From assembly GCA_035390125.1 (NCBI GenBank), contig DAOOTD010000002.1, positions 105,908 to 169,907 of the forward strand: 64,000 nt of DNA. The letters are read 5' to 3'. This stretch comes from Candidatus Moraniibacteriota bacterium. GTDB taxonomy: Bacteria; Patescibacteriota; Minisyncoccia; Moranbacterales; GWC2-37-73. Made by a program: the position numbers and the translations under genes. Positions 15,134 to 60,020 of the stretch are shown in pieces. Each line of letters starts with the position of its first letter. Position 1 is the first letter of the stretch. Below the pieces are notes generated by a model that was not told the origin of the DNA, made no database searches, and worked only from the letters and a program-made list of their open reading frames with translations.

Positions 15134-15135
15134 TT

Positions 15136-15969: not shown

Positions 15970-15982
15970 AAATAAATTTTAT

Positions 15983-18172: not shown

Positions 18173-18178
18173 TTTTTT

Positions 18179-19505: not shown

Positions 19506-20567
19506 TTGCGTAATTATTCAGCCTTTGCAGTGGTGGTATCAAGTTCACTTCTTGTTTCAGCAACAAATGTTGCCTCAGGCAATAATTATGGCAAACTTCT
19601 TTTTGGTTATTGGGATGCATCAGCTGAGACCATTCCAGCGGTGAATGGCAGTAAAATAAGCGGACAGGTAAATAAAAAAAATGATTTAGCTCTTGTTCCC
19701 CTTTCCAAATCAAACACATCCATTGAACCAGAAAAAAAAGAAGATGATTCAAACAGGAGCATTATAAAGGATGACGGAATAATGCTGGTTTCTGGCGGAG
19801 CCAATCCGATGAAAGATCCTGAAGAAGAGGGCGGGGTTAAAATGTATATTGTACAATCCGGTGACACTCTCGGTTCAATCGCTGAAAAAAATGGAGTTTC
19901 GGTTAATACTATTTTGTGGGCAAATGACATCAGTAATGCCGACTCCATAATGCCAGGAGATACTATGTTCATTCTGCCTGTTTCAGGAGTAAAATATGTC
20001 ATAAAATCGGGAGACAATCTTGATGCTATCGCTAATAAATTTAAAGCAGAAAAAGATAAAATAATAGCCTTTAATGATTTGCCAGCGAATGGAGAAATAA
20101 AAGTGGGAGAAGAAATAATTATTCCTGATGGCCAGGGAGAAGCTCCTAAGCCAGCTGTTCCAAGCAGCAGCCAATCCTTAATCAATAAGAGGCAATATGC
20201 GAATACTGCAGGAGGAGTTCCCCAGATTACGGGCAGAATTCTTTCAGGGAAAGCCGGCACTGGTCATAGATTTCCATATGGATATTGCACTTGGTTTGTC
20301 GCCCAGAAACGTTATGTTCCCTGGGGTGGCAACGCTGGAACATGGCTGTACCATGCAAAAGCTGCCGGGTATGCAACCGGAAAAACTCCACGACCAGGAG
20401 CTATCGTAGTGACTACCGAGAACAGATATTATGGTCATGTGGCTTATGTTGAAAAAGTCAGCGGAAACAGTTTTACTGTTTCTGAAATGAATTATGTCGG
20501 TTATGCAAAAACAAGTCGCAGAACAATCTCAACTTCAAGCAGAGTTATTAAAGGTTTCATTTATTAA
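19506..20567 (+). CDS. Secreted peptidoglycan hydrolase with two LysM domains and a C-terminal CHAP amidase/peptidase domain
   Basis: Signal peptide; LysM repeats (YIVQSGDTLGSIAEKNGVS…, YVIKSGDNLDAIANKF…); CHAP Cys (GYCTWFVAQKR) and His (GHVAYVEKV). The ORF-track start is a TTG at 19506; the true start is uncertain. Confidence 0.75.
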   Translation: MRNYSAFAVVVSSSLLVSATNVASGNNYGKLLFGYWDASAETIPAVNGSKISGQVNKKNDLALVPLSKSNTSIEPEKKEDDSNRSIIKDDGIMLVSGGANPMKDPEEEGGVKMYIVQSGDTLGSIAEKNGVSVNTILWANDISNADSIMPGDTMFILPVSGVKYVIKSGDNLDAIANKFKAEKDKIIAFNDLPANGEIKVGEEIIIPDGQGEAPKPAVPSSSQSLINKRQYANTAGGVPQITGRILSGKAGTGHRFPYGYCTWFVAQKRYVPWGGNAGTWLYHAKAAGYATGKTPRPGAIVVTTENRYYGHVAYVEKVSGNSFTVSEMNYVGYAKTSRRTISTSSRVIKGFIY

Positions 20568-20642
20568 AATTGGCTGGTTAAAACAGGTTGAAAAAGTTAA
20601 ATTTTATATATAAATATAAAATATTTTCGTGAAAATAAATAA

Positions 20643-20678
20643 AGCCCCGTTTTTGTTAAAAGGGGCTTTTTATTTTTT
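20643..20678 (+). terminator. Rho-independent terminator
   Basis: AGCCCC-gtttttgttaaaa-GGGGCT stem-loop followed by TTTTTATTTTTT. Confidence 0.6.
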
Positions 20679-20689
20679 GATTAAAGTTA

Positions 20690-20719
20690 TTGCCTGACAT
20701 TACGAAAGTATGCTATAAT
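20690..20719 (+). promoter_or_regulatory. Candidate promoter: TTGCCT -35, 18 nt, extended TGcTATAAT -10
   Basis: Perfect TATAAT at 20714-20719 with TG two bases upstream, 31 nt before the VirB6-like ORF start. Confidence 0.35.
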
Positions 20720-20749
20720 TTTCACATATAGAATTAGATTGGAATCCTA

Positions 20750-22711: not shown

Positions 22712-22753
22712 TATACAGATAAAAATGTCAAGAATATTTTTTAATAAATTGTT

Positions 22754-23152
22754 ATGGATATAGATGCTATAAAAGACAGACTGACGAATAAATTTTCTTT
22801 GCCGCACGTTTCTTTTGAACAGGACACGATAGAACAAAAGAAATTGCTTGCGCTGTATGTGCTTGCTTCTGATAGCCAGCTTGTGTTGTTGCCGACTTAT
22901 TTTGCTTTTTCTTATCCCGCTTTCATTGCCGGTCTTAATGAAAAACATATTGAATATATAGCCAAAAACGCTCCAGCTGATTACAAAAGAGAGCTTATGA
23001 AAGCAATCAGCCAGAGCTACGTGCTGAAAGAAGTTTTTGAAATTGCAAAATCCATGGATGAAGATTTGGGCAGAAGCAGCACAACTAATCAGGACAGAAT
23101 AAAAAATGTCATGCGGTATATCAGGGATAACAGAGTAATTTTTGAATTCTAA
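22754..23152 (+). CDS. Hypothetical protein (T4SS-cluster associated)
   Basis: 132 aa soluble ORF, ATG start, protein-like composition. The overlapping minus ORF is not protein-like. Confidence 0.4.
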   Translation: MDIDAIKDRLTNKFSLPHVSFEQDTIEQKKLLALYVLASDSQLVLLPTYFAFSYPAFIAGLNEKHIEYIAKNAPADYKRELMKAISQSYVLKEVFEIAKSMDEDLGRSSTTNQDRIKNVMRYIRDNRVIFEF

Positions 23153-23162
23153 AAAACAAAAA

Positions 23163-24500
23163 ATGACAGTCATATATACAAATCAAAACAACATCTCTCC
23201 CAAAAATAATGCCGGCCAGTATGATTTGAATGAGGAAAGGAAAATAGCGGATGAAATAACCGAAGAGATAAAAGAAGACCTTATTGAAAAATGGAGAACA
23301 ACATATGAAAATGCTGAAATTTTTCCGTATAAAATCAGTGCCATGCATTCGGATGTCCTTGATTTTCTCTTGGGATTTGATCTGATTTCCATTTATGACA
23401 ATATAGCCAGACAGGCAGGACTTGATATGAAAGGCAGAAGCATTCTTCCTCAAGTTGTGTGGAGCGTTGCGCAAAGCAAAAAATGGAGTGAGGCAGAACA
23501 GGAATTGCAGAAAAGAATATTGCTTCCCCCGAATACTAAAGCTTTGACTTTGCAGCTTCTTGAACAAAACATAATAAGCAAACTTATCATGCTTTCGGCT
23601 AAGCCTTCGGCCAAAAAAAGTCCTGCCCAGAGCGAAACAGAAAGAAGAATCCAGTTGCCGCTTTCAGAAGCATTGCAAAAATACAAGGAACTGGGAGAAC
23701 AAAACATTACTATCAATCAGCTGAAACTCAAATATTTTCCTACGCCTGTCAGGCCATCTATAAGAAACTGGATTACTGATTTCCATGACAACATGGGAAG
23801 CGGAAAGCATGGTACAGTCGATAGGGCGAATTATTTATTTCACAGCGAAAATGGGAAAAAACTCACGCCCGTAGAAAGGCAGAAACTTTCATTGATTCTT
23901 AAATCACTGGACGAAAAAACTCCTTTAATCATCGATACGGAACTGCAACGGATTATTTTCACAGAAGGCAAGGTTTTTCCAAATGAACAAACTGAAAATT
24001 TGCCAAGCCGGAGCGGACAAACAGCAGAAATAAATATGTATTCAAAAAATGAAGAGTCTAATAGCTTTGCTGCTATAGAAGATAATTATCTGCAAGTTCC
24101 GAAATATCAGCCGCCCCAAGAAAATAAAAAATATTCTCCCAACTTCAAGGACTTGACGGAGCCGAGCGTTTTGCCGGAACAAAAAATAGTAAATTCAAAT
24201 CAGGATGATTCAAGAGGTTCGGTTGTGGATGAAGGCAAGGTAAGTTTTTCTTCTCCGCAAAAGTTTTCAAATGAAAAAGAAAATGAAAAACCAATAAGGC
24301 CTGCTAGTACGATTAGCCAGCAAAAAACATTTATGACCCCAACGCCACAAGCAGATAGAGAAAAAACATTTGGAAATAAAGCATCTGAAATAAAACCGTG
24401 GGTCATCAAGCCGTCTGCTTATTTTAATGAAGAAAAAACGGATGAAGAACAAACTTTACAGGCAAAAATAAGAGGAAACATTGTTGATTTAAAAGGCTGA
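23163..24500 (+). CDS. Hypothetical protein with low-complexity Q/K/E/P-rich C-terminal half
   Basis: Long ORF on the operon strand. The ORF-track start is a TTG at 23142; the ATG at 23163 is preferred. No recognisable motif. Confidence 0.4.
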   Translation: MTVIYTNQNNISPKNNAGQYDLNEERKIADEITEEIKEDLIEKWRTTYENAEIFPYKISAMHSDVLDFLLGFDLISIYDNIARQAGLDMKGRSILPQVVWSVAQSKKWSEAEQELQKRILLPPNTKALTLQLLEQNIISKLIMLSAKPSAKKSPAQSETERRIQLPLSEALQKYKELGEQNITINQLKLKYFPTPVRPSIRNWITDFHDNMGSGKHGTVDRANYLFHSENGKKLTPVERQKLSLILKSLDEKTPLIIDTELQRIIFTEGKVFPNEQTENLPSRSGQTAEINMYSKNEESNSFAAIEDNYLQVPKYQPPQENKKYSPNFKDLTEPSVLPEQKIVNSNQDDSRGSVVDEGKVSFSSPQKFSNEKENEKPIRPASTISQQKTFMTPTPQADREKTFGNKASEIKPWVIKPSAYFNEEKTDEEQTLQAKIRGNIVDLKG

Positions 24501-24505
24501 AAATT

Positions 24506-24778
24506 ATGGATATCATAAATACAGCATATGCAGGAGTTATTACAGACGCTCCTACAGTAAGAGAAATTGGAGCGAATGTTCTGTCTTTTTTATTGTCAAT
24601 AATGGGAATAATTGCTATAATATCATTAGTTGTCTCTGGAATAATGTATTTTTTTTCAGCCGGCGACTATAAAAGAATAGAGATTGCAAAAAAATCCACC
24701 AAATACTCAATACTGGGAATCGTCATTGCCTTAGGAGGAATGATAATAATCAGATTTATCGGCAGTTTTTTAAATTAA
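24506..24778 (+). CDS. VirB2/TrbC-like pilin-family protein (paralog 3)
   Basis: 90 aa; TM – FSAGDYKRIEIAKKSTKYSILG – TM; same motif as the other paralogs. Confidence 0.55.
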   Translation: MDIINTAYAGVITDAPTVREIGANVLSFLLSIMGIIAIISLVVSGIMYFFSAGDYKRIEIAKKSTKYSILGIVIALGGMIIIRFIGSFLN

Positions 24779-24851
24779 TCAGGATTCAAACGAATAAAGG
24801 AAAGTTTAAAATAAATAAAAAAATTTATAAACTAGAATGGGAGGTGTTACT

Positions 24852-25199
24852 ATGCTGAATAAAGTTAAAAAAATTTTTTATGCAATCGCCAGTTTAATCG
24901 CAATTGCTCCATCAGCAGTTTTGGCTATCAATGTGCCTGATGCAGATCTTCCGGATGCAACCCTTACAGATATAATCACTGGTTTTATGAACTGGCTTTT
25001 AGCTATCGTAGGTATTTTAGCAGTTATAGGATTCGTTATCGCTGGAATTATATATCTTACAGCTGCTGGAGATGAAGACCAGATCGCTCGTGGCAAGAAA
25101 ACCATGATTTACTCGTTGGTAGGTATTATCGTGGCTCTTATGGGAGTCATAATAATCAAAGCGGTGCAGTCAATGTTGGGCGGTGGCAGCAGTTTCTAA
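24852..25199 (+). CDS. VirB2/TrbC-like pilin-family protein (paralog 4)
   Basis: GGAGGT Shine-Dalgarno 7 nt upstream of the ATG at 24852 (ORF-track start 24837). Signal peptide …APSAVLA; TM – LTAAGDEDQIARGKKTMIYSLVG – TM. Confidence 0.6.
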   Translation: MLNKVKKIFYAIASLIAIAPSAVLAINVPDADLPDATLTDIITGFMNWLLAIVGILAVIGFVIAGIIYLTAAGDEDQIARGKKTMIYSLVGIIVALMGVIIIKAVQSMLGGGSSF

Positions 25200-25226
25200 A
25201 TTTTTTGTATGCATATAAAAGCAGAA

Positions 25227-25252
25227 GGCGATTCCTCGGAATCGTCTTTTTT
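25227..25252 (+). terminator. Rho-independent terminator
   Basis: GACGATTCC/GGAATCGTC stem (1 mismatch) followed by TTTTTT. Confidence 0.5.
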
Positions 25253-25322
25253 GCAAAGTGTACATAATTTAAGGATTATGATATAATTAAATTATAATAA
25301 TAATTTTTTATACTTTAAAAAA

Positions 25323-25685
25323 ATGAATATCAAAAAGAAAACATTGGGTACTATTATTTCAACAATTCTACTTTTTCCAATGTCTGTTCTGGCCGCAGAT
25401 GGAGAAGGATGGCAAATAGGAGATGATTATGGTCTTCCTACGGGAACCATAAGCGGAATTCTCGAGGGTCTTTTGAATTGGCTTTTGGGAATTTTTGCAG
25501 TCTTAGGAGTTATAGGCTTTATAATTTCAGGAATTATGTATTTAGTGTCCGCAGGTGATGAAGACGGAATTGCACGAGCTAAAAAAGCTATGATTTACTC
25601 GCTGATAGGAATTATTGTCGGCCTTTCCGGTATTATCCTGATAGCAGCTGTGGATAGCTTTTTAATGGGTAGCGGTACATTCTAA
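25323..25685 (+). CDS. VirB2/TrbC-like pilin-family protein (paralog 5)
   Basis: 120 aa; signal peptide …MSVLA; TM – VSAGDEDGIARAKKAMIYSLIG – TM; about 50 percent identical by eye to paralog 4. Confidence 0.6.
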   Translation: MNIKKKTLGTIISTILLFPMSVLAADGEGWQIGDDYGLPTGTISGILEGLLNWLLGIFAVLGVIGFIISGIMYLVSAGDEDGIARAKKAMIYSLIGIIVGLSGIILIAAVDSFLMGSGTF

Positions 25686-25729
25686 AATTCTTAATGACCT
25701 ATTTTTATCACCAATAATCTGCTAAAAAA

Positions 25730-26227
25730 ATGATCAAAACAAGAAAAAATATCTTTCTATTTTTTGTTGCAATATCTTTTGTAAGCTTGTTTTTTGTGAG
25801 TGTTGATATAACAAAAGCTGGGGATGCTGAATATGCTAGTTGTCTACTGGGTTGTTCTCCTACGGATACTGAGTGTACTCGTGCATGCAGAGCTCTTAGA
25901 GGAGATGGTGAAGGAGATTGCGGTGCAGGCTTTACACCTGTCGGCGGGGTTTGTTTCCCTGATGAAACAGGGTTGCCAGACTCTCAGGATATTCCGGGAA
26001 TTCTTTCCAGCGTATTAAAATGGCTATTGGGAATATTTTCAACCATTGCGCTCATCTCATTTGTGATATCCGGCGTGTTATATATTACTTCATCCGGCGA
26101 CACCGACCAGATCGAAAAGGCAAAACGCAATGCTTTGTATTCTATTTTAGGCGTTATCGTGGGTCTTTCTGGGTATATCATAATTGTGGCGATTCAGGCT
26201 GCTCTGGGAGGAAACAGTACGTTTTGA
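25730..26227 (+). CDS. VirB2/TrbC-like pilin-family protein with Cys-rich N-terminal extension (paralog 6)
   Basis: 165 aa; signal anchor, then an 8-Cys module (CLLGCSPTDTECTRACRALRGDGEGDCGAGFTPVGGVCF), then TM – TSSGDTDQIEKAKRNALYSILG – TM. Confidence 0.55.
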   Translation: MIKTRKNIFLFFVAISFVSLFFVSVDITKAGDAEYASCLLGCSPTDTECTRACRALRGDGEGDCGAGFTPVGGVCFPDETGLPDSQDIPGILSSVLKWLLGIFSTIALISFVISGVLYITSSGDTDQIEKAKRNALYSILGVIVGLSGYIIIVAIQAALGGNSTF

Positions 26228-46020: not shown

Positions 46021-47166
46021 ATGAGTCTTGATAGCGCGCAACAACTTAATAATGTTTTGAATAATGCCAAGAACATCTTAATTTTTATGGGACGTGGTTC
46101 AGAAGGTGACTCGATAGGATCAGCTTGGGCAATATATTTCTTTCTGAAAAAAATGGGAATTCAGTCAACTGTAGTAACTCCTGATATTAAAAATAATTTT
46201 GACCGTTTTTCTTTCTTAACAAAACCAGAAGAAACGATAAGCAGTCTAGCTGGTGCGCGTGATTTTGTACTTTCATTCAATACTGAATTCAATAAAATAA
46301 CTAACGTACGTACTGAGCGCAATAATCAACAATTAAATATTTTTATTACTCCGGAAAAAGGCTCTATTGATCCGCGTGATTTTTCTTTCATTCCTGCAAA
46401 ATTCAAATATGATCTTGTGATCGTGCTAAATAGCCCAGACAAAGAATCTTTAGGAAAAGTTTACGAAGAAAATCCAGACATTTTTTATGAAGTTCCGGTT
46501 ATAAATATAGATTATCATGCCGATAATGATAATTTTGGACAGCTTAATATAGTTGATATAACCGCTTCTTCAACTTCTGAGATAGTGGCTGACCTAATAC
46601 AAAAAATTAACGCGGAAAATTTGGATGAAACTATAGCAGAAAGCCTGTTGACCGGAATCATTGATGCGACAAACAGTTTTCAGAAGAAAAACACTACTCC
46701 GAAATCATTACAGATATCTGCGGCCTTGATGGCTAAAGGCGCAAACCAACAAAAGATAATTCGCTATTTATACAAAACCCAGCCATTGCATCTTTTGAAG
46801 CTCTGGGGAAGAATAATGGCACGTTTATATTGGGAAGATGATATTAGTCTGGCTTGGGCACCTGTATATATAGAAGATTTTGTACAGAGTCGCAGTAATC
46901 CGGATGATATTACATTTATTCTTGATAAAATTAAAGACAATTACTCTGCAGGTAAAATTTTTATGGTTCTTTACAATGAAATGCCTGGAGAAGTTTGCGG
47001 AATTATAAAATGTAACAATGCAGAACAATTAAAAAAGATAGCTGAAACATTAGAAATATCTGCTAACGGTGACACATGTCAATTTAAGCAGGAGGCTGTC
47101 GATACAGTAGAAGCTGGCCAACGCATAGTTGAAAAGATAAGAATGCAAATAGCAGATCAGCAATAA
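46021..47166 (+). CDS. DHH-superfamily phosphoesterase-like protein (degenerate DHH motif)
   Basis: 381 aa; N-terminal layout like NrnA (…ILIFMGRGSEGDSIGSAWA…), but the DHH triad reads DYH (NIDYHADN) and no GGGH motif. Confidence 0.45.
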   Translation: MSLDSAQQLNNVLNNAKNILIFMGRGSEGDSIGSAWAIYFFLKKMGIQSTVVTPDIKNNFDRFSFLTKPEETISSLAGARDFVLSFNTEFNKITNVRTERNNQQLNIFITPEKGSIDPRDFSFIPAKFKYDLVIVLNSPDKESLGKVYEENPDIFYEVPVINIDYHADNDNFGQLNIVDITASSTSEIVADLIQKINAENLDETIAESLLTGIIDATNSFQKKNTTPKSLQISAALMAKGANQQKIIRYLYKTQPLHLLKLWGRIMARLYWEDDISLAWAPVYIEDFVQSRSNPDDITFILDKIKDNYSAGKIFMVLYNEMPGEVCGIIKCNNAEQLKKIAETLEISANGDTCQFKQEAVDTVEAGQRIVEKIRMQIADQQ

Positions 47167-47343
47167 AAATACTTAAAGGACTTTTTCCTGGTTAATGATT
47201 TTTTAATTGATAATAGATGTCTCTTGGATTAATCCTACTTGTGGTAGGTTTTTTATTATGATTATTTTTTGTAATTTTTGTCTATTTATAGTACAATTAC
47301 ACTAAACTTGAACGGAATAGGAATATTTAAACAAAAAATAATT

Positions 47344-50300
47344 ATGGTAAAAGTTTCTGATAAACAATTAATTAGAGACAAGGAAAAAGAAACACAAACC
47401 GGGAAGCTTCTGAAAAAAATGAGTGGCCAGTCAGAAGAGGAAATCGCATCCCAGCTAGCTGCTGAATGTGGGCTTGCTTATGTCGATTTGAATATTTTTC
47501 CAGTGAGCTCAGATGACATGCGTTCTATTAGTGAAGAAGAATCAAGGAGGTACAAAATGATAGTTTTTCAGAAAGCTGGCAAAGAACACAGAATCGGGGT
47601 TGTCAATCCTACGAGTCAAGAAACCATATCTTTTATAGAAAAACTTAAAAATGAAAACGGATGGTTAATTCATTTGTATGTTATTTCGAATTCTTCTTTT
47701 AATAAAATATGGAAAAGATATGCTGCTATACCTTTTCTGGAAAACCTGGAATCAATGCAGATATCTCTCAGTGGCAAAGATTTAGATGATTTTGATAAAG
47801 AATTTGGAAATTTACTCGAATTAAAGAAACGTATAAATGAAATTCCCACTTCTCAGATAATTTCTATAATCATGGCAGGGTCCGTAAAGATGAAGGCAAG
47901 TGACATACATTTTGAACCGGGTGAACAAGAAGTACGTATGAGATTTCGCATAGATGGAGAACTTCAGGATATAGCTAGTTTTCCATTAGACACTTATCAT
48001 TTCATTTTGTCACGTATAAAAATGATGGGTAAAATGAAAATAAATGTACGTGATATTGCACAAGATGGCCATTTTTCTGTTGATATAGAAAATGGCAAAA
48101 TAAATGTAAGAACCAATATAATTCCCGGAAATCACGGAGAGTCAATAGTTATGCGTATTTTGAGTCAGGCTGACATAATGTTGGGAATTGAAGATTTGGG
48201 ATTGAGGGGATTAGCCTATGAACGGTTACAAAAGGAAGTTTCAAAACCGCATGGCATGATTTTAACAACAGGGCCTACTGGCAGTGGAAAGACTACGACC
48301 CTTTATGCTCTTGTTAATAAGCTCAACACCGCAGGAGTTAAAATTATAACAATCGAGGATCCAATTGAATATGAAGTTAAAAATATCTCTCAAACTCAGG
48401 TTGAAAAAGGAAGAAGCTATACTTTCGCAGAAGGGCTCAGAGCCATTGTACGTCAAGATCCAGACGTTATTTTAGTAGGTGAAATCCGTGATGATGAAAC
48501 AGCAGATATAGCTGTTAATGCAGCTTTAACCGGTCACCTTGTTCTTTCTACATTGCATACAAACAATGCCCCGGCATCAATACCAAGGTTTGTAGAGCTT
48601 GGTATAAAACCTAATTTAATATCACCTTCAGTGAATGCATTTATTGCGCAAAGGCTTGTACGCAAGCTTTGTCCACATTGCAGAGAAGAATATGCTCCGG
48701 CGCGTGAAACAATCGATTCTATTAAAAAGATTCTTTCTATAATTTCACCTAAGGCAAAAGTAGAAATACCAAAAACAGTTGAAAAACTATATCGTCCAGT
48801 CGGATGTTCTAAATGCCACAATATTGGATTTAAAGGACGCATTGGAATCTTCGAGATCTTAACGATAACCGAACCAATAGAAAAACTTATTTTGGAAATG
48901 GGTAGTGAAAGGGAAATAACACAGGCTGCGCTGGAAGATGGAATGATAACAATGGCGCAGGATGGAATTTTAAAAGCTATCGAAGGACTGACTTCCATGG
49001 AAGAGGTTTGGCATGCAACAGGCCAGACAGAATTTCTTGAAGAAATATATACAAAATTAATGGAGCAGTCGCTATCCAGGTCAGTTGAAATTCACGAAGA
49101 AGATCTGAAACTAGTTTCAGAAAACATGACCTCAATTGAATCTTTAGGTAAATTCTTACAAAACTCCAATCAAAAAGAAGTGGCTAATTATATTTTTGCT
49201 AGCAGTTTATTACTTAATGTTGGAGATATACACATAGAACCCGAAGAAAAAGTAGTAAAAATAAGATACAGAATGGACGGAATTTTGCAAACAATTGCAG
49301 AAATTCCAATTAACGAGTATCCCAGTTTGTTGGGAAATATAAAATTTTTAAGCGGATTCTCTTCTGAAATAAGGGGAGGAGTCATGGATAGTCGTTTTAC
49401 TATTGCATTAGAAAAACCATATAAAAATATAACTGAAACAAAAGTAGATGTTCGTGTATCAATAATACTTGGGGGGTATGGAGAGACAGTCGTTATGAGG
49501 CTTCTAAATAAATCATCTGTTGCTCTTGATTTAGAGAAACTCGGTATTCGCAAGCAAAACATGGAAAAAATAATTGAAGAGACGAGAAAACCAAACGGAA
49601 TATTTTTAAACACAGGGCCTACAGGATCCGGCAAGACCACGACACTTTATAGCATTATGAAGATTTTAAATAAACCTGAAGTGAAAATAATAAGCGTTGA
49701 AGATCCGATTGAATATCAGCTAGAAGGTATACTTCAAACTTCTGTTAATGATAATGAAGGATATACTTTTGGCACCGCTTTGCGCGCGCTTCTGCGTCAA
49801 AATCCCGACATTATGATGATTGGTGAAATTCGCGATGAAGAAACAGCCAATATAGCAGTTCAAGCTGCTCTGACTGGGCACTCTATCCTTTCTACTCTAC
49901 ATACAAATAATGCGGCTGGTTCTATACAACGTTTAATTAATATGGGAGTACGTAGTGATGATTTAGCAACAGCTGTCAATGCTTTGATGGCGCAAAGGCT
50001 TGTGCGTAAGCTTTGTGATTGCAAAACAAAAAGACAAATGACGGAAGAAGAAAAGAATAAAGTCAAAAAAATACTTCAGAACGTGTCTGACAAATCTGGA
50101 GTGGCTATTCCACCAATAGAAAGTGTTTATGAACCAAAAGGCTGTGATAAATGTAATGGCGTAGGATATAAAGGCAGAACAACAATAAGCGAGGTTTTTG
50201 TAATCGATCGAGACATAGAAGAATTGATTATGCAAAGCGCTTCCGCCACACAGCTTCAAGATAAAGCAGTGGAAAATGGAATGATAACAATGGAACAAGA

Positions 50301-50361
50301 TGGAATTTTAAAAGTTCTGGAAGGCGAAACAACTTTTGATGAAGTGGACAGGGTAGTATAG
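47344..50361 (+). CDS. Tandem-fused double GspE/PilB-family secretion ATPase (two complete ATPase units)
   Basis: Two successive units, each with a GspE N-terminal-like domain, Walker A (GPTGSGKTTTLY twice), Asp/His boxes, Walker B (…VGEIRDDETA… / …IGEIRDEETA…) and a CxxC…CxxC zinc module. ORF-track start 47278 is a TTG; the ATG at 47344 is preferred. Confidence 0.8.
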   Translation: MVKVSDKQLIRDKEKETQTGKLLKKMSGQSEEEIASQLAAECGLAYVDLNIFPVSSDDMRSISEEESRRYKMIVFQKAGKEHRIGVVNPTSQETISFIEKLKNENGWLIHLYVISNSSFNKIWKRYAAIPFLENLESMQISLSGKDLDDFDKEFGNLLELKKRINEIPTSQIISIIMAGSVKMKASDIHFEPGEQEVRMRFRIDGELQDIASFPLDTYHFILSRIKMMGKMKINVRDIAQDGHFSVDIENGKINVRTNIIPGNHGESIVMRILSQADIMLGIEDLGLRGLAYERLQKEVSKPHGMILTTGPTGSGKTTTLYALVNKLNTAGVKIITIEDPIEYEVKNISQTQVEKGRSYTFAEGLRAIVRQDPDVILVGEIRDDETADIAVNAALTGHLVLSTLHTNNAPASIPRFVELGIKPNLISPSVNAFIAQRLVRKLCPHCREEYAPARETIDSIKKILSIISPKAKVEIPKTVEKLYRPVGCSKCHNIGFKGRIGIFEILTITEPIEKLILEMGSEREITQAALEDGMITMAQDGILKAIEGLTSMEEVWHATGQTEFLEEIYTKLMEQSLSRSVEIHEEDLKLVSENMTSIESLGKFLQNSNQKEVANYIFASSLLLNVGDIHIEPEEKVVKIRYRMDGILQTIAEIPINEYPSLLGNIKFLSGFSSEIRGGVMDSRFTIALEKPYKNITETKVDVRVSIILGGYGETVVMRLLNKSSVALDLEKLGIRKQNMEKIIEETRKPNGIFLNTGPTGSGKTTTLYSIMKILNKPEVKIISVEDPIEYQLEGILQTSVNDNEGYTFGTALRALLRQNPDIMMIGEIRDEETANIAVQAALTGHSILSTLHTNNAAGSIQRLINMGVRSDDLATAVNALMAQRLVRKLCDCKTKRQMTEEEKNKVKKILQNVSDKSGVAIPPIESVYEPKGCDKCNGVGYKGRTTISEVFVIDRDIEELIMQSASATQLQDKAVENGMITMEQDGILKVLEGETTFDEVDRVV

Positions 50362-50433: not shown

Positions 50434-50507
50434 GGCAGGGATTTTTCAATCATCTGCCTTTTTTAAGCATAAAAGATTTAAGGCAGGGCGAATATCTCGC
50501 TCTGCCT
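50434..50507. terminator. Two hairpins between convergent genes (likely bidirectional terminators)
   Basis: GGCAG…CTGCC + TTTTTT (50434-50464) and AGGCAGGGCGA-atatc-TCGCTCTGCCT, an 11-bp stem with 1 mismatch (50481-50507). Confidence 0.4.
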
Positions 50508-50512
50508 TTGTT

Positions 50513-53188: not shown

Positions 53189-55132
53189 GTGAAAACAAAA
53201 AGAAAAATAAAAATAGCATATTTTTTTTGCATACTGCTAATTATACCGGCAGCTTTTTTTGTTTTTAATTATTCATGTTTTGCCAACGAAAATCCTATAA
53301 TAAGCGCTGTGCAAACTAAAGGAAATAATGCCAACGATGATTTCATAGAAATATATAATCCAAGTTGTAATGACATTAATATCTCCGATTGGAAAATAAT
53401 AAAAAGAACGGCTTCTGGAACCGAATCATCAATAAAGGTTATAAGTCATGGAACAGTTATTAAAGCAAAAAGCTATTTTCTCTGGAGCAATTCAGGATTT
53501 TCTGAAACAGTACGAGCTGATCAGTCAACAGTATCTATCTTATCGGATAACTATAGCATTGCCTTATTTAATGACGATAAAATTACTGATTCAATAACCT
53601 GGGGAATTAATTCAAATCCATTTTTTGGGAGCTATTTTTATTCTGAAAACTTACTTAAATCCCAAGTTCTTAAAAAAGATGCGGATGGTGATTTTTCAAC
53701 GGAGATAAATTATTTACCTAAAAACTCTTCAATTGTAAATGAAGCAGAATTGTCTTTATGCAAAAAAGAAGATCCTGTGTCTGTTGAATATTCAAATAAG
53801 CTTCAAATTAGTGAGTTATTGCCTAATCCAGAAGACGGTGATGAAGAATATATTGAATTTTACAATAATTCGGATGAAAAAATTAATCTTAAGGGTTGGT
53901 CTTTACATGACGCATCAAAATCAGGCGAATATGTTTTTTTATCAGCCGATTACATGGAGCCGGAAGAATATTTTGTAATTTATAAATCAGATTTTAAATT
54001 TGCGCTAAACAATAGTGGAGATGAAAATTTAGTGCTTTTTGACCCAAATAAAAAAGATATTTTTGAAGTCTCGTATTCTGGCAGTAAAAAGGGTATTTCA
54101 TATAGCTTTGATGGGAATGAATGGCATTGGAGCAAGTTTCTGACTCCGGGAGAAGAAAATAAATTTGAAAAAATTCACAAGGGAAAGCCGGATATTGACG
54201 AAAATATATATGTGAATGTGTATGCTAATTTTAAAATTGGTAGACTTTCCAAAAAAGCTAAAGTGACATGGGACTTTGGAGACGGACATAAGAGCTATCT
54301 TAAAAAAACAAAACATAAATATAAAAAAGCTGGAAAATATGAAGGCAGTGTAAAATATTCAGAGGGCAGCGAAGACAGGATAGAAAAATTTACTATAGAA
54401 GTCGTGAAAATGAAACATCCGGAAGTTAAAATTATTTCGGTTAATGCTAATCCCATAGGTAGCGATACGGAAAATGAAACTATTACGGTAGAGAACAAAT
54501 CTAAGAAGAAAATAAACCTCAATGGCTGGAGTATAGCGACGGGCTGGAAAAAACTCATTAATCATCCTATTTCGATCGATTTTGAAATTAAAGCTGGAAA
54601 AAGCAGAGAAATTACCCGTGAAATTTCCAAATTTACTTTGAATAATACGAAAAACGAAATAGAACTTCGCTATCCGGACGGAAAAGTTGCCTATGATTTA
54701 AAATATAAAAAGAAAAATGACTCTATTAAGGAAGGAGAAATTTATACAAAAAGTAAAGGCGGATGGATATGGGTTGGTAGTAATAAGCAGGTAGAAAGCA
54801 GTAATCAGGAAGCAATAAATAGCGAGCAGGAAGATATAAATATAAATGGAAGTGATGATATGGAAAATATTTCAGAAGCAGATATTATTTCAAAGCCGAT
54901 GTTTGAAAGAGAAAATAAATTGGTTTCAAACAATAAAAAAATATTCAAAATAGAATTATCAAATAATTATCCGCGTGTTTTAGGCGAAGAAACAGTCAGA
55001 GAAATTGATGGTACTTATTTTTTCACGGCAGAACTACCAAGGCAATCTCATTACATGATTATTTTTATAAAAGATTTATTTACGGTAATAAATTTAAAAT
55101 TAAATTTTATAATAAACTTTTTCCTAAACTGA
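53189..55132 (+). CDS. Secreted lamin-tail-domain (LTD) repeat protein with PKD-like segment
   Basis: 647 aa, GTG start, signal anchor. Three LTD-like units (NPIISAVQTKGNNANDDFIEIYNPS…DWKI; ISELLPNPEDGDEEYIEFYNNSDEKINLKGWSL; KIISVNANPIGSDTENETITVENKSKKKINLNGWSI) and a PKD-like WDFGDGH motif. Confidence 0.55.
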   Translation: MKTKRKIKIAYFFCILLIIPAAFFVFNYSCFANENPIISAVQTKGNNANDDFIEIYNPSCNDINISDWKIIKRTASGTESSIKVISHGTVIKAKSYFLWSNSGFSETVRADQSTVSILSDNYSIALFNDDKITDSITWGINSNPFFGSYFYSENLLKSQVLKKDADGDFSTEINYLPKNSSIVNEAELSLCKKEDPVSVEYSNKLQISELLPNPEDGDEEYIEFYNNSDEKINLKGWSLHDASKSGEYVFLSADYMEPEEYFVIYKSDFKFALNNSGDENLVLFDPNKKDIFEVSYSGSKKGISYSFDGNEWHWSKFLTPGEENKFEKIHKGKPDIDENIYVNVYANFKIGRLSKKAKVTWDFGDGHKSYLKKTKHKYKKAGKYEGSVKYSEGSEDRIEKFTIEVVKMKHPEVKIISVNANPIGSDTENETITVENKSKKKINLNGWSIATGWKKLINHPISIDFEIKAGKSREITREISKFTLNNTKNEIELRYPDGKVAYDLKYKKKNDSIKEGEIYTKSKGGWIWVGSNKQVESSNQEAINSEQEDININGSDDMENISEADIISKPMFERENKLVSNNKKIFKIELSNNYPRVLGEETVREIDGTYFFTAELPRQSHYMIIFIKDLFTVINLKLNFIINFFLN

Positions 55133-55275
55133 AAAAAGCTTATCTAAAAAAGATGCTTTTATTTTCTCTAAGTAAAAATCATAAATAATTACGAGCTTTA
55201 CAAAAAAGCCCACCTTCACTTGCATAAGCTATGGCGGGCAGGACAATAGAAGTTACGCTAAACCTTCTTGCCATA

Positions 55276-55509
55276 TTACGTGGTTATTTCATCTACTATT
55301 CTGATAAGTTCTCCAATTGAGTGCCAATTATCTTTGGGTATGTAATCGTGAGCTTTTTGGGCAAAAGAATATAAATTCATTTTTTCTCCAAAATTAAGAA
55401 ACCTTGCTTCTGAAGGCAGAAGTTTTTCGTATTCAGGCTTGATGTCATTGGGAATCCATTTAATAATTGAGTTTAAAATAGATCTTAGTCTTTCCAATTT
55501 TTCTCTCAT
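55276..55509 (-). CDS. Small hypothetical protein
   Basis: 77 aa ORF with ATG on the opposite strand to its neighbours; helical, charged. Confidence 0.3.
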   Translation of the reverse strand: MREKLERLRSILNSIIKWIPNDIKPEYEKLLPSEARFLNFGEKMNLYSFAQKAHDYIPKDNWHSIGELIRIVDEITT

Positions 55510-55675
55510 TTTTCAACTCCTTTCTCTTTAAAATTAAAAGAACTTTTCTATTTATGTCCGTTTTAGCTTAATACAATATTTAAAACAGATTATTACAAAA
55601 TTATAAGATGTTTACCTTGAAATAGATTTTTATGAGTGATAATATTAGTTTGTATAAAATATAAAAAATAAATCT

Positions 55676-56392
55676 ATGTCCGGACATTCGCATTGGGCAG
55701 GAATCAAACAAAGAAAGGGCGTTAACGATGCCAAGAAAGCGAACGTATTTACCAAATATGGACGGCTTATTTCTATTGCCGCCAAACAAGGTGGCGGCAA
55801 TCCGGATCATAATTTTTCCTTGCGTTTAGCTATTGATCAGGCGCGGTCGGTCAATATGCCAAAAGACACCATCGAACGTGCTATTAAAAAAGGCACAGGC
55901 GAACTCAAAGATGGATCGGAAATTGAAGAAGTAATTTATGAAGGCTATGGACCAGGCAATGTGGCAATGCTGATCAAGACGGCTACTGATAATCGCAATC
56001 GGACCTTCAGTGAAATTAAAAGTTTATTCACTAAAGGGGGAGGTAAACTAGGCAGTGAAGGCAGTGTCAAATTTATGTTCAAACAAGTAGGCAGTATTGA
56101 AATCTTAAATGAAAATAGAAATTCAGATGAAATTGAAATAGCAGCTATTGAAGCTGGAGCAGAAGACATGGCTTATGAAAAAGATTTTATTATTATTTAT
56201 ACGGCCACAACGGAATTACAAAATGTCAAAGAAAGCTTAGAAAAGAATGGGATTAAAATAGAAGGTGCTGGATTGATCTATGTGCCGTTGCAAAAAATAG
56301 AACTTCTTCCTGAGGCTAAGACAGCTTATGAAAATCTTTGGGAAAAATTGGATGAGCATGATGATGTACAAGAAATTTTTGACAATCTTTAA
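55676..56392 (+). CDS. yebC: YebC/PmpR-family transcriptional regulator
   Basis: 238 aa; N-terminal MSGHSHWAGIKQRKG and conserved YebC layout; immediately upstream of ruvC. Confidence 0.9.
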   Translation: MSGHSHWAGIKQRKGVNDAKKANVFTKYGRLISIAAKQGGGNPDHNFSLRLAIDQARSVNMPKDTIERAIKKGTGELKDGSEIEEVIYEGYGPGNVAMLIKTATDNRNRTFSEIKSLFTKGGGKLGSEGSVKFMFKQVGSIEILNENRNSDEIEIAAIEAGAEDMAYEKDFIIIYTATTELQNVKESLEKNGIKIEGAGLIYVPLQKIELLPEAKTAYENLWEKLDEHDDVQEIFDNL

Positions 56393-56403
56393 TTGTTTAT
56401 CAG

Positions 56404-56925
56404 ATGAAAAAAAAATCAAAAAATATTGAGAAATTAAGAGTTCTCGGTATCGATCCCGGATCAGCAACTGTTGGTTGGGCAGTTTTAGACGAAAAAAATG
56501 GGAATGTAGAATCTGTGGCTTATGGACACATTTCAACTTCACCCAAAAATAATACCGCAGAAAGACTTCTTGAGGTTTCTAGCGACTTAGAGCAGATAAT
56601 AAAAAAATATAAACCAGATGAAGCGTCTGTAGAAGAATTGTTTTTCTTTAAAAATGTAAAAACAGTCATGAAAGTCAGCCAGGCCAGAGGAGCTATACTC
56701 TTGACTTTGGAAAAAAATCGTGTTAACGTATGCGGTTATACTCCGCTCCAAGTCAAGCAGGCTTTAACAGGATATGGACGGGCGGAAAAAAAGCAGGTTC
56801 AATCGATGGTTAAAGAGGTATTAAAGCTTAAGAACATTCCTAAGCCAGATGATACAGCCGATGCAATTGCAATTGCTCTCTGTCATTTGAATAGTAGAAA
56901 AATGAAATCAATAAAATGTAAATAA
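56404..56925 (+). CDS. ruvC: Crossover junction endodeoxyribonuclease RuvC
   Basis: 173 aa; …VLGIDPGSATVGWAVL… RNase-H-fold catalytic Asp, …DAADAIAIA… C-terminal acidic motif. Confidence 0.9.
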   Translation: MKKKSKNIEKLRVLGIDPGSATVGWAVLDEKNGNVESVAYGHISTSPKNNTAERLLEVSSDLEQIIKKYKPDEASVEELFFFKNVKTVMKVSQARGAILLTLEKNRVNVCGYTPLQVKQALTGYGRAEKKQVQSMVKEVLKLKNIPKPDDTADAIAIALCHLNSRKMKSIKCK

Positions 56926-56978
56926 ATACGAATTTGAATTTAAAATTAATTCAAATTCCTAGAAATTAGAATAAAATT

Positions 56979-57635
56979 ATGCAAAACATAAATCCTTTTA
57001 TAAGCTACCTTGTTAATCAAGGGGTGCCTCTTGATACTGTCATCTTATTATTAATGCTGCCTATCGTTGTCACTCTCATAGCTTTTTTTCGTCAAGTTAT
57101 TGGTATTAAGGCATTTGGAATTTATACGCCAGCTATTATAACATTTGCTTTTTTAGCTATGCCACAACTCAGGTATGGCCTCGTAATTTTCATAAGTGTT
57201 ATCTTAATGGGTATGCTTATGCGCTTCATGCTTAAAAAACTGCGTATATTATATCTGCCAAGAGTTGCCATAATGCTTAGCATAATTGCTGTTGCAATTT
57301 TGATAATGCTTGGTTTTGGAGGCTCTATGCACAGAACAGGCTTAGCTTCTGTTTCAATTTTTCCTATATTGATAATGATTACAATTGTAGAAAAATTTGT
57401 TGCTACCCAAATAGAAAAAGGAAATAAAGTCGCCTTAATTCTTGCTGCAGAAACTTTAATAATTTCAATAGCCGGTTACTATTTAGCAAGCTGGCCATTT
57501 CTTATAAAAAGCATAGTAGCATTTCCGTGGTTAGTTCTTTTTACGATACCGGTCAATATATTACTTGGCAAATGGAATGGTTTAAGAATAAGCGAGTATA
57601 TAAGATTTAGAGAAGTTTTAAAAAACATAAAGTAG
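56979..57635 (+). CDS. Seven-TM membrane protein (partner of alpha-L-glutamate-ligase-like ATP-grasp)
   Basis: 218 aa with about 6-7 hydrophobic helices; stop 4 nt before the start of the ATP-grasp gene. Confidence 0.5.
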   Translation: MQNINPFISYLVNQGVPLDTVILLLMLPIVVTLIAFFRQVIGIKAFGIYTPAIITFAFLAMPQLRYGLVIFISVILMGMLMRFMLKKLRILYLPRVAIMLSIIAVAILIMLGFGGSMHRTGLASVSIFPILIMITIVEKFVATQIEKGNKVALILAAETLIISIAGYYLASWPFLIKSIVAFPWLVLFTIPVNILLGKWNGLRISEYIRFREVLKNIK

Positions 57636-57639
57636 AAAA

Positions 57640-59049
57640 ATGTTTGATTATATAAAAAATGCACATAAGTTGCTTGGCATGAATGCTCGCAATCTTGAAT
57701 ATATACGTCAATATAATCGCAAAAATGCGAAACGCCTTGCTGATGATAAAATCATGAGCAAGCGTATATTAAAAAAAGCAGGTATTCCCGTGCCAGAACT
57801 TATTGCTAAAATTAAATCAGTTGAGGAATTGGATGATTTTAACTGGGATCAATTGCCAAACTCTTTTGTTTTGAAGCCCAGCCGAGGTTTTGGTGGCGGT
57901 GGAATTTTAATTGTGTATGGAAAAAAGAAAAATAAAAGTGACATTTGGATTAAAGCTGATGGGTCTACAATCACAGTTGAAGATATTAAAAGCCATGTAC
58001 TGAACATATTAGATGGATCATTTTCACTTTCTAATCTTCCTGATGTTGCATTTTTTGAAGAAAGGCTTGCACTTCTTAAACTCTTTAAGCCCTATGCCTA
58101 CAAAGGAGTTCCTGATATTCGTGTAATTGTTTTTAACAGTATTCCTGTAATGGCAATGCTTCGTCTTCCAACCAAAGAATCAAAAGGAAAAGCTAATCTG
58201 CAACAAGGTGGAATAGGAATAGGAATAGACCTGGCATCAGGTATAACAACTACAGCAGTTTTGGGAAAAGGTAAAATTATTGACTATGTTCCAGGAACCA
58301 GACTCCTGCTTTCAGGTATAAAAATTCCTTATTGGAAAGAAATTTTGCTTTTAGCTGTCAAGGCACAGGAAATTTCTGGCATGGGATATTTAGGTGCTGA
58401 TATTGCCATTGATAGAGAAAGAGGACCAGTTTTCTTAGAGATAAATGCACGTCCAGGGCTTTCCATACAGATTGCAAATTTATCAGGATTAAGAGAGCGG
58501 CTGGAAAGAGTAAAAGGAATTAAAATCAAGTCAGCTGAAAGAGGAGTTCGTGTAGGAAGAGACCTATTTGGAGGGGAAGTCGAAGAGGAGTTGGAGGACA
58601 TTTCTGGGAGAAAAGTTATCGGTACTATAGAAAAAATAAAAATTATTTATAAAGACGGAAAAGAAATTGAAGTTGATGCCAAAATAGATACTGGAGCTAA
58701 TTCAACATCTATAGATTATGAGCTAGCAAAAGAAATTGGTTTTGGCGAAACAGTTGATGAATTTTCTAAAATAGATTTATCACAATATCAAATACTTCCA
58801 GAGAATGAATCTGAAATCAAGAAAGATATCCTAGCAAAATATAAAGAAAAAATTACAAGTCTGGAAGATGTCGCAGTTATTTTTTCTTCTAGCGGCTCAT
58901 CAATAAGACCGGTTATTAAAGTAAGTTTTATTATGGATGATATAGAAATAACATCAAAAGCAAATTTAGTAAAAAGAGAAAATCTTAAGTGTCCTGTCAT
59001 TATTGGAAAAAGAGATCTGAAGAAATTTCTAATAGATGTGAATAAATAA
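57640..59049 (+). CDS. RimK-type ATP-grasp amidoligase (alpha-L-glutamate-ligase-like) fused to C-terminal retropepsin-like aspartic peptidase domain
   Basis: 469 aa; N-terminal …MNARNLEYIRQYNRKNAKRLADDKIMSKRIL…FVLKPSRGFGGGGI… ATP-grasp. C-terminal …KIDTGANSTSID… (DTG) and a second …IIGKRDLKKF… flap-like segment of the 'putative ATP-dependent zinc protease'/retropepsin fold. Confidence 0.6.
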   Translation: MFDYIKNAHKLLGMNARNLEYIRQYNRKNAKRLADDKIMSKRILKKAGIPVPELIAKIKSVEELDDFNWDQLPNSFVLKPSRGFGGGGILIVYGKKKNKSDIWIKADGSTITVEDIKSHVLNILDGSFSLSNLPDVAFFEERLALLKLFKPYAYKGVPDIRVIVFNSIPVMAMLRLPTKESKGKANLQQGGIGIGIDLASGITTTAVLGKGKIIDYVPGTRLLLSGIKIPYWKEILLLAVKAQEISGMGYLGADIAIDRERGPVFLEINARPGLSIQIANLSGLRERLERVKGIKIKSAERGVRVGRDLFGGEVEEELEDISGRKVIGTIEKIKIIYKDGKEIEVDAKIDTGANSTSIDYELAKEIGFGETVDEFSKIDLSQYQILPENESEIKKDILAKYKEKITSLEDVAVIFSSSGSSIRPVIKVSFIMDDIEITSKANLVKRENLKCPVIIGKRDLKKFLIDVNK

Positions 59050-59054
59050 ATTAT

Positions 59055-60020
59055 ATGAAAAATAAAAAAATAAAAAATGTAGTAGTTATATATTGGGGAA
59101 ATGATTGGAATTGCAAGATACCTATTTCAAATGAAATTACCCGGCATTCATTTGAAAAATGGCATGAAATGGGCATTAAAAAAGGTATTGAGATGTATCG
59201 AGCTTCAATCAATTGGTATGATTTGCGGAAGAATGTTTTTATAAAATCCTGGGCCTTTCGGAACAAAAAATGGATAAAAATTGAAAAAAACATAAGGCCA
59301 GATCTTGTATATGATAAGGTTGGAGGAAAGCGCGACTTTAAGTCTTTTGAAAAAAAATTGCACATAGCTAAGAATGTTAAAATGTTCAATAACCCATTGT
59401 TTAGAGTGATGGTCAACAGTAAACTTTCTCAGTATGCAATTTTTGGAGAGTTTATGCCAAAATCATTTGTGGCTATGGACAAAAGCGAACTTATTCAAAT
59501 GTTTTCTAAAATAAAATCAAAAAAAATAGTTATAAAACCACTTTATGGATCTGGCGGGCACGGAATTGTTATTGATGAAAAAGAAAAAGCAATAAATAAA
59601 AAATACCAGTACCCAGTGCTTGTGCAGGAATTTATTGTTAGCGAAAAAGGAATTCCCGGTTTTTCAAAAAAGAAAGAGATTTCGGACCTGCGTTTAGTTT
59701 TTATGAATCACAAATTAAGCTATGCTCTTTCACGTATTGCCAAAAAGGGTTCTTTATTCACGAATTTACATCAGGGTGCAAGTGGAACTCTTGTTCCTGT
59801 GAAATATATACCCAAAGAAGTAGTTAAAATTGCAGAGAAAATAATTAAAAAACTAAAAATTTTCCCTGAAGCGCAATATTCCTTGGATTTTATTTTTTCA
59901 AATTCAGGAAAGCCTTATTTTGTTGAAATGAATACTACACCTGGCATAGATCTTATAACGGTTTTAGGTGACGAAAAAATTAAGCGAAAAAGCTTCGAAG
60001 ATATAATTAATTTAGCCTAA
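59055..60020 (+). CDS. Second RimK-like ATP-grasp ligase
   Basis: 321 aa; …VIKPLYGSGGHGIVI…, …VLVQEFI…, …DLRLVFMNHKLSYALSRIAKKGSLFTNLHQGASG…, …YFVEMNTTPGID… follow the ATP-grasp motif order. Confidence 0.55.
   Translation: MKNKKIKNVVVIYWGNDWNCKIPISNEITRHSFEKWHEMGIKKGIEMYRASINWYDLRKNVFIKSWAFRNKKWIKIEKNIRPDLVYDKVGGKRDFKSFEKKLHIAKNVKMFNNPLFRVMVNSKLSQYAIFGEFMPKSFVAMDKSELIQMFSKIKSKKIVIKPLYGSGGHGIVIDEKEKAINKKYQYPVLVQEFIVSEKGIPGFSKKKEISDLRLVFMNHKLSYALSRIAKKGSLFTNLHQGASGTLVPVKYIPKEVVKIAEKIIKKLKIFPEAQYSLDFIFSNSGKPYFVEMNTTPGIDLITVLGDEKIKRKSFEDIINLA

Follow-up and report, generated by a model that had tools for sequence, protein, structure and literature searches.

What becomes of a hexameric secretion motor when two of its subunits are encoded in one chain? 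PilB, GspE and PilT motors are homohexamers. In a stretch of 64,000 nucleotides from Candidatus Moraniibacteriota (GenBank assembly GCA_035390125.1, contig DAOOTD010000002.1, positions 105,908 to 169,907 of the forward strand; hereafter the window), a single gene encodes a protein with two diverged PilB/GspE-type ATPase units. This locus raises the questions of whether the fusion is real, how it arose and what kind of ring and function the product might serve. We show below that the tandem is genuine: a PilB-type ATPase was duplicated within its gene, and the duplicated form has been inherited vertically. That its product assembles as a trimer of covalent dimers, forming a pseudo-hexamer that drives a type IV filament, is the reading which, taken as a whole, we favour and consider moderately probable.

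An open reading frame (ORF) scan of the window recovered the gene as a single ORF without internal stops, running from either a TTG at 47278 or an ATG at 47344 to the stop at 50361. The ATG gives a product of 1005 aa and the TTG one of 1027 aa. The public gene calls for the identical protein (NCBI, JGI and Logan) all start at the ATG, as does every one of the orthologs, which share the N-terminus 'MVKV...'; none uses the TTG, which in the window falls within a promoter-like element (see the table). The GC content of the gene is that of its flanking sequence. A preliminary description of this DNA, made from the sequence alone, had proposed two ATPases fused in one 1027-aa chain, with clearly diverged halves that were each complete down to a GspE-N-like domain. 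The uninterrupted frame, the divergence and the presence of the ATPase motifs and cysteines in both halves bear this out; the length is corrected to 1005 aa from 47344, and the GspE-N domain is restricted to unit 1.

Pfam T2SSE (PF00437) matches the protein in two separate stretches (757.8 bits in total against a cut-off of 24.9), and the NCBIfam PilB and GspE models likewise match in two stretches. Alignment of unit 1 with unit 2 (residues 131-555 against 571-1001) yielded 43% identity over 432 aa (E = 4e-126), the inter-unit identity being lowest in the N2D domain (25-42%) and highest in the ATPase core (55-67%). The nucleotide sequences of the halves are 67% identical over 437 nt, with a single further stretch of 55 nt at 87%. 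Domain matches and self-alignment establish a predicted layout of N1-[N2D-CTD]-junction-[N2D-CTD] (CTD, C-terminal ATPase domain), in which the two units are joined head to tail by a junction of about 50 residues. The N1 domain is matched by Pfam MshEN at residues 43-126 with a borderline 22.7 bits against a cut-off of 23.1; the region aligns with the N-terminal part of Myxococcus xanthus PilB (3jc8), and its residues 40-120 are modelled by AlphaFold2 (AF2) with a predicted local distance difference test score (pLDDT) of ~80-88. Neither Pfam nor self-alignment detected an N1 domain in unit 2, which begins directly with a linker followed by its N2D. The N1-N2 linker of unit 1, homologous to the inter-unit junction, has low pLDDT at 128-151 and a helix thereafter. 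Within the junction the motif FLEEIYxKLMEQSLSRS is kept across the family, and also in both junctions of the three-unit protein P0004 discussed below. The tetracysteine modules of the units differ in that unit 2 has CxC in place of the first CxxC of unit 1.

Motifs, zinc module and fold together place the protein in the T2SSE superfamily and, within it, in the PilB/GspE clade. Its best solved sequence relatives are PilB (E = 1e-105), followed by GspE and PilF. Against the NCBIfam PilB model TIGR02538 (cut-off 675.65) units 1 and 2 score 483.9 and 398.3 bits, and the full protein, at 871 bits, exceeds the cut-off only because the two unit scores add up; the canonical Moranbacteria PilB likewise falls under it, at 527. 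The other models also leave both units below their cut-offs: 473.1 and 412.3 bits with TIGR02533 for GspE (630.25), 209.9 and 161.4 with TIGR01420 for PilT/PilU (319.1), and 243.0 and 227.6 with NF041000 for ComGA (300). No type II secretion system (T2SS) genes were found in the window. Database labels for these proteins read simply 'GspE/PulE family protein' or 'PilB'. A Foldseek comparison of the AF2 model with PilF 5oiu and PilB 5tsh/5tsg gave TMt values of 0.89-0.92 and root-mean-square deviations of 2.4-3.3 Å, so that the model conforms to the N2D-plus-CTD two-domain fold predicted for a member of the T2SSE superfamily.

Among characterised systems, PilB is the closest counterpart: the M. 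xanthus (3JC8) and Geobacter metallireducens (5TSG/5TSH/6OLJ) proteins are the top match to full-length unit 1 including N1 (E ~1e-105), and share with it the N2D-plus-CTD fold (TMt 0.9), Walker A, Asp box, Walker B, His box and tetracysteine module. However, known PilBs have one unit per chain and form homohexamers, whereas the tandem protein has two diverged units per chain and is encoded outside the pil operon. GspE/EpsE (Vibrio 1P9R, 4KSR/4KSS, 4PHT) gives comparable hidden Markov model (HMM) scores and has the same N1-N2-CTD order and zinc-binding CxxC...CxxC, but it too is a single unit per chain, and it works with the outer-membrane T2SS. PilF of Thermus thermophilus (5IT5, 5OIU, 6F8L), a PilB-type motor and a close structural match, likewise repeats a module within its chain; there, however, it is the N-terminal GSPII/N1 module that is repeated three times with a single ATPase unit, whereas in the tandem protein N2D and CTD are repeated and N1 is single. 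The PilC/GspF platform is also internally duplicated (Cyto1/Cyto2) and is modelled as a trimer that pairs 3:6 with the ATPase, one N2D to each Cyto domain, but it is a membrane protein and not an ATPase. Every chain among the solved structures of the PilT/GspE family is single-unit, with no tandem member. The tandem PilB-type architecture is conserved, and a full-text literature search found no paper describing a tandem PilB or GspE.

The extent of this conservation settles the reality of the fusion. The identical protein is encoded on contigs of GCA_022709545.1 (a Candidatus Moranbacteria metagenome-assembled genome), JGI 3300025706 and Logan SRR4244739, and the same 1005-aa product is present on 11 contigs from independent assemblies. 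We surveyed 5.8 billion proteins and then, exhaustively, 1.84 billion 50%-identity representatives. More than 110 clusters lie at 66-100% identity, nearly all of 1005-1007 aa and drawn from four sources (NCBI, JGI, ENA and Logan); the 1.84 billion representatives hold ~14 further tandem clusters of 978-1018 aa at 39-54% identity, whose named members are Parcubacteria or Paceibacterota, and there are ~20 additional Patescibacteria clusters of 992-1030 aa. When one genome of each GTDB species was scanned with an alignment of the junction region as the query, 295 relatives were confirmed. The ORFs of the best 80 were checked, and in all of them the junction is covered without a break. The ORF reaches full length (1005 aa or more) in 72; of the other eight, five run into a contig end, two are split and the last is 900 aa long. 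Far from being a one-off, the family is conserved in at least 72 species of Patescibacteria.

The preliminary description had held that the tandem is no assembly duplication, and had named an internal stop or frameshift among the findings that would undo the fusion; at the junction itself, no split is seen in any of the 80 species genomes. An artefact, whether a misassembled repeat or the erroneous merging of two adjoining genes in sequencing or assembly, is refuted because the ORF is intact in 72 of these genomes and broken at the junction in none; the independent contigs, the conserved junction motif and the modest DNA identity of the halves all speak against it too, and we accord it practically no weight. 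The two split ORFs both break away from the unit junction: one (L048 8468-11480) yields 893+119 aa, and the other (L054 4508-7779) 787+292 aa with ~220 extra nt in the matched region. They could reflect frameshift errors, insertion or decay.

Turning to the origin of the units, reciprocal best hits in the main clade pair unit 1 with unit 1 and unit 2 with unit 2 across proteins, and the two units of the window protein are sisters in 0 of 100 neighbour-joining bootstrap replicates. As far as sequence comparisons go, this is consistent with a single ancient duplication in the main clade, an interpretation that rests mainly on the reciprocal best hits because the deep split between the unit 1 and unit 2 clades is recovered in only 40 of 100 replicates. 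Other tandem proteins have units that are each other's sisters: P0132 (74% inter-unit identity, 100/100), P0131 (54%, 97/100) and P0141 (44%, 78/100). P0131 and P0132 sit at the same syntenic locus as the window gene; in them the duplication has either recurred or been followed by gene conversion between the units. A further elaboration is seen in P0004 (1460 aa, L007 10001-14383, JGI 3300022698), found on one contig only, which has three units and lies at the TsaE/DHH locus. The N2D of its middle unit is 70-77% identical to that of unit 3 and the C-terminal part 60-67% identical to that of unit 1. This unit is hence a chimera of a unit-2-type N2D and a unit-1-type C-terminus, which implies unequal crossing-over.

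Type IV pilus components are widespread in bacteria of the candidate phyla radiation (PMC6744442). We examined how the tandem gene relates to the canonical pilus operon. The preliminary description had pointed to the lack of adjoining pilC, pilM or pilin genes, correctly so: the window and the 10 kb past its 3' end contain none. Across the 85 loci of tandem-family members, on which all our neighbourhood counts are based, 84 have no pil genes near the tandem gene. The exception is L079 (Moraniibacteriota), with a canonical pil operon (14548-20569) 7 kb downstream of it that comprises pilB (591 aa, MshEN plus T2SSE), a response regulator, pilT, pilC and three pilins. A second operon, L093 (2094-12958), encodes pilM, two ORFs (one with a faint PilO match), pilB (554 aa), a response regulator and pilT, followed by pilC, pilins and prepilin peptidase. 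The canonical PilBs of both operons are 47-48% identical to either tandem CTD and fall elsewhere in the tree than the tandem units, with weak support. Moranbacteria commonly encode PilC homologs; those on long contigs came from organisms other than the source of the window. Among single-unit proteins the nearest relative is P0136 (565 aa, 50% identity), which occupies the same DHH-PilB-RuvB locus. The tandem protein is an additional PilB paralog rather than the motor of the canonical operon, because related Moranbacteria operons encode their own single-unit PilB; it belongs to a PilB paralog lineage of Parcubacteria/Moranbacteria that is found at a fixed housekeeping locus and is distinct from the operon PilB. 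As a side observation, both operons place a stand-alone response-regulator receiver gene between pilB and pilT.

We then considered the state of the two units, using 85 Moranbacteria-family sequences for the assessment of invariance, for the AF2 alignment and for the motif scan. By their motif content both units appear catalytically complete. Walker A, Asp box, GEIRD and His box are present in both units across the diverged tandem clusters, and these same motifs, together with all eight cysteines, are invariant in both units of the 85 family members, as are R198/R200/R202, D241, R256 and R271 in the N2D of unit 1. The mean column conservation is 0.83-0.87 in the units (0.83 in the N2D of unit 2), as against 0.62 in N1 and 0.69 in the junction. 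Moreover, 28 aligned positions are conserved within each unit yet different between the units. Because unit 1 and unit 2 each have conserved residues that the other lacks, both are probably active, with some degree of specialisation. In the AF2 monomer the domains are well folded (mean pLDDT 77), and the pLDDT drops below 50 at 561-578.

The most economical model for the assembly is a trimer of covalent dimers forming a pseudo-hexamer. Three chains would make up a six-unit ring with units alternating u1-u2. This ring would act as PilB hexamers do: driven by ATP, its N2Ds would move so as to turn or lift a PilC-type platform and thereby add pilins to a type IV filament, which may be the pilus of the canonical PilB or a second one, such as a filament for DNA uptake. 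The two N2Ds of the protein might each be specialised for one cytoplasmic domain of the platform, giving a 3:3 complex, and just three N1 domains per ring would contact a PilM-type scaffold. An alternating ring is indirectly suggested by the unit counts seen, two and three (P0004), both of which divide six; by the N2D, the domain modelled at the platform, being the one that differs most between the units; and by the recurrence of the N1-(N2D-CTD)x2 layout in the proteins with sister units (P0132, P0131). It is also suggested by an AF2-multimer model of a PulF trimer on a PulE hexamer, in which each of the duplicated cytoplasmic domains binds one N2D (PMC10790770). A tandem ATPase in a 3:3 complex would be the counterpart of this arrangement. 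A bolder version of this model holds that the trimer of dimers is obligate, with alternating units on the two PilC cytoplasmic domains (3:3); that the fusion arose or was re-made repeatedly at one locus in bacteria of the candidate phyla radiation (main clade, P0131, P0132 and the three-unit P0004); and that it powers a second filament function, such as DNA uptake, beside the canonical PilB/PilT pilus. This combination we put forward tentatively, as the less probable form.

Several observations weigh against the favoured reading. The deep nodes of the neighbour-joining tree are weak, as the poorly recovered split of the unit clades illustrates, and each unit singly lies under the NCBIfam equivalog cut-offs for PilB and GspE. 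The AF2 monomer has a predicted template modelling score (pTM) of only 0.44, its linkers (128-151 and 561-578) are disordered and it offers no confident inter-unit arrangement; because of this pTM, its inter-unit geometry is uninformative. No pil genes of the source genome were found within the window and the 10 kb on its 3' side, pilC, pilM and pilin genes never directly adjoin the tandem gene at any of the 85 loci, and a dedicated PilB is already encoded in related genomes. Lastly, tandem ring ATPases such as KaiC, ClpB, p97 and EccC mostly stack rings rather than alternate units within one. KaiC, ClpB/Hsp104, p97 and EccC likewise arose by intragenic duplication of a P-loop ring ATPase and divergence of both sites, but they belong to other branches of the superfamily. 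It is conceivable that the tandem protein follows them, with six chains forming two coaxial hexamers with 12 ATP sites as in KaiC or ClpB, where the unit 1 ring with its six N1 domains alone would sit at the membrane platform and the unit 2 ring would be an auxiliary or regulatory tier. Stacking being the usual outcome of such duplications, this arrangement has to be taken seriously: each unit has a full N2D plus CTD and could close its own ring, and the junction, in which ~18 disordered residues are followed by helices, has the length to permit either arrangement. However, the solved chains of the family are all single-unit, and no PilT/GspE-family member is known to stack rings; stacking would also turn the unit 2 N2D away from the platform and towards the unit 1 CTD, and yet this N2D is conserved at 0.83. 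These points are not decisive. On balance we regard the stacked double ring as unlikely, although well worth keeping in view.

The genomic context lends itself to another interpretation, in which the ring ATPase was recruited to DNA uptake or processing or some other envelope function unrelated to pili, as hinted by its fixed neighbours (the DHH-like protein, RuvB, PolA and the LTD surface protein). The tandem gene is never inside a pil operon, PilB and PilT are already present in related genomes and the DHH-like partner gene is kept in 73 of the 85 loci. Nevertheless, adjacency is weak evidence, as housekeeping synteny is generally rigid in small genomes, and terminator-like and promoter-like elements part the DHH-like gene from the ATPase gene. 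Given also that the sequence and fold signals, N1 and the zinc module included, are all of PilB/GspE type, a non-pilus role strikes us as improbable. Two further proposals concern the division of labour between the units. One unit might be a silent regulatory pseudo-ATPase, in a hexamer with one working site per chain; decay of this kind does occur in distant tandems, where unit 1 of P0141 has lost its Walker A Lys and unit 2 of P0128 its cysteines, but the Walker A Lys, Walker B Glu and His box are invariant in both units of the window protein and the 85 family members, which renders the proposal very unlikely here. Alternatively, the protein could join an extension to a retraction motor, unit 1 being PilB and unit 2 PilT-like, in keeping with the absence of N1 from unit 2 as from PilT. 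The HMM scores of the single units and the cysteine module led us to reject this. As GspE, unit 2 scores 412 bits and as PilB 398, against 161 as PilT/PilU (cut-off 319), and it keeps the PilB/GspE-type cysteines; the phylogeny did not place it within PilT/PilU, and related genomes encode a separate PilT. There is accordingly hardly any likelihood left for such a fusion.

It is still debated whether ATP turnover proceeds round the ring of these motors in cycles of two-fold or of three-fold symmetry, and by what means the six subunits are coupled to a platform that is modelled as a trimer of internally duplicated proteins. A natural covalent dimer and a covalent trimer (P0004) fix the subunit order in the ring, and each class of site could therefore be mutated separately, as has reportedly been done in engineered linked ClpX rings. 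In an alternating u1-u2 ring opposite subunits would be non-identical, whereas in a ring of the three-unit protein they would be identical; the tandem and the three-unit proteins thus predict different outcomes for a two-fold symmetric cycle. In addition, the ~1-Mb genomes of Moranbacteria and other Parcubacteria retain a third motor of the PilB family, unusually large and encoded away from the pilus operon. This points to an unrecognised filament or uptake function. Bacteria of the candidate phyla radiation are believed to rely on pili for a host-dependent lifestyle (PMC6744442).

Table. Features of the tandem ATPase gene and its surroundings. Coordinates are positions in the 64,000-nt window; residues are numbered from the ATG at 47344.
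Feature	Position	Strand	Remarks
Tandem PilB/GspE-type ATPase gene	47344..50361	+	ORF of 1005 aa plus stop; two T2SSE stretches
N1 domain (GspE-N/MshEN-type)	47344..47733	+	residues 1-130; present once only
N1-N2 linker	47734..47868	+	residues 131-175; homologous to inter-unit junction, aligns with 571-615
Unit 1 N2D	47869..48213	+	residues 176-290; from alignment to PilB/GspE structures
Unit 1 C-terminal ATPase domain	48214..49023	+	residues 291-560; Foldseek TMt 0.9 to PilF 5oiu and PilB 5tsh
Unit 1 Walker A GPTGSGKT	48271..48294	+	residues 310-317
Unit 1 Walker B (GEIRD, Glu380) to His box (TGH...HTN)	48457..48564	+	residues 372-407
Unit 1 tetracysteine module	48670..48816	+	C443 C446 ... 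C488 C491 (CxxC...CxxC)
Inter-unit junction	49024..49176	+	residues 561-611; flexible 561-578, then helices
Unit 2 N2D	49177..49557	+	residues 612-738; 7-residue insertion relative to unit 1; most diverged region between units
Unit 2 C-terminal ATPase domain	49558..50358	+	residues 739-1005
Unit 2 Walker A GPTGSGKT	49615..49638	+	residues 758-765
Unit 2 Walker B (GEIRD, Glu828) to His box	49801..49908	+	residues 820-855
Unit 2 tetracysteine module	50014..50154	+	C891 C893 ... C934 C937 (CxC...CxxC)
Terminator-like hairpin	47234-47248		precedes the promoter-like element
Promoter-like element TTGTAA-17-TACAAT	47269..47297	+	upstream of ATG; consensus match only, weak evidence
Terminator-like hairpin	50480..50508	+	3' of ATPase gene; 12-bp stem, 7 GC pairs, T-run; consensus match only
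DHH-like protein gene	46021..47166	+	381 aa; degenerate DHH motif; Pfam DHH 47.2 bits
LTD/PKD surface-type protein	53189-55132		647 aa
7TM transglutaminase-like membrane protein	56979-57635
Two ATP-grasp (RimK/YheCD-type) enzymes	57640-60020
Type IV secretion block 1: T4SS_pilin genes	7768-8211, 8183-8896
Type IV secretion block 1: PrgI	8935-9387
Type IV secretion block 1: TraC-like	9398-10087
Type IV secretion block 1: VirB4-like ATPase	10159-11982
Type IV secretion block 2: CHAP/LysM hydrolase	19506-20567
Type IV secretion block 2: TrbL/VirB6-like	20750-22711
Type IV secretion block 2: four further T4SS_pilin genes	24506-26227

The housekeeping context of TsaE/DHH-like gene, tandem gene and RuvB is fixed: it is seen in the window, in L006, L007, L009 and L092, and across the 85 loci. 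The most persistent neighbour is the DHH-like protein, encoded upstream on the same strand (73 loci), followed by RuvB (67), a bPH_2 protein (58), TsaE (54), a 74-aa protein (51), an LTD protein (43), YebC (37) and PolA (36). The best solved relatives of the DHH-like protein are NrnA and the phosphodiesterase TM1595. Its motif III reads DYH, of which only the Asp (D164) is invariant, and it bears an invariant family-specific insert, TPEKGSIDPRDFSF. The window also encodes a second, canonical DHH/DHHA1 (NrnA-type) protein (1147-2106), and the gene beside the ATPase is for this reason to be seen as an extra, divergent paralog.

In MshE, cyclic di-GMP is bound through a 24-residue motif in N1, RLGxx(L/V/I)(L/V/I)xxG(L/V/I)(L/V/I)xxxxLxxxLxxQ (PMC5013675). 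Neither strict nor relaxed forms of this motif occur in the window protein or in any of the 85 family members. Control of the motor by cyclic di-GMP through N1 and the DHH-like neighbour was considered and rejected: the MshEN motif is absent, DHH motif III is degenerate and the terminator-like and promoter-like elements intervene between the two genes.

Among the distant tandems, P0141 (L090 10001-13144, GCA_964384625.1) is of note in that two soluble repeats resembling the cytoplasmic domain of PilC replace N1; Thr stands in place of the Walker A Lys in its unit 1, and its gene adjoins a pair of ECF sigma and anti-sigma genes. In P0128 the cysteine module is gone from unit 2. GspE-like ATPases of ~610-620 aa with both T2SSF (PilC-type) and T2SSE matches (P0456, P0460, P0484 and others) constitute a family outside the candidate phyla radiation, one member of which is named Candidatus Brocadiia, and P0141 is a tandem version of these. 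We did not count P0141 as 'Rosetta-stone' support for a 1:2 pairing of PilC and ATPase, an argument that is weakened because its relatives bear the T2SSF-like sequence on a single ATPase unit.

Downstream of the tandem gene lies a conserved block (53189-60020), most members of which recur with the locus in related genomes; besides the proteins listed in the table, it includes the genes for YebC and RuvC. Elsewhere in the window, two blocks (7768-11982 and 19506-26227) contain Patescibacteria-type type IV secretion genes, which are conjugation-like and unrelated to type IV pili.

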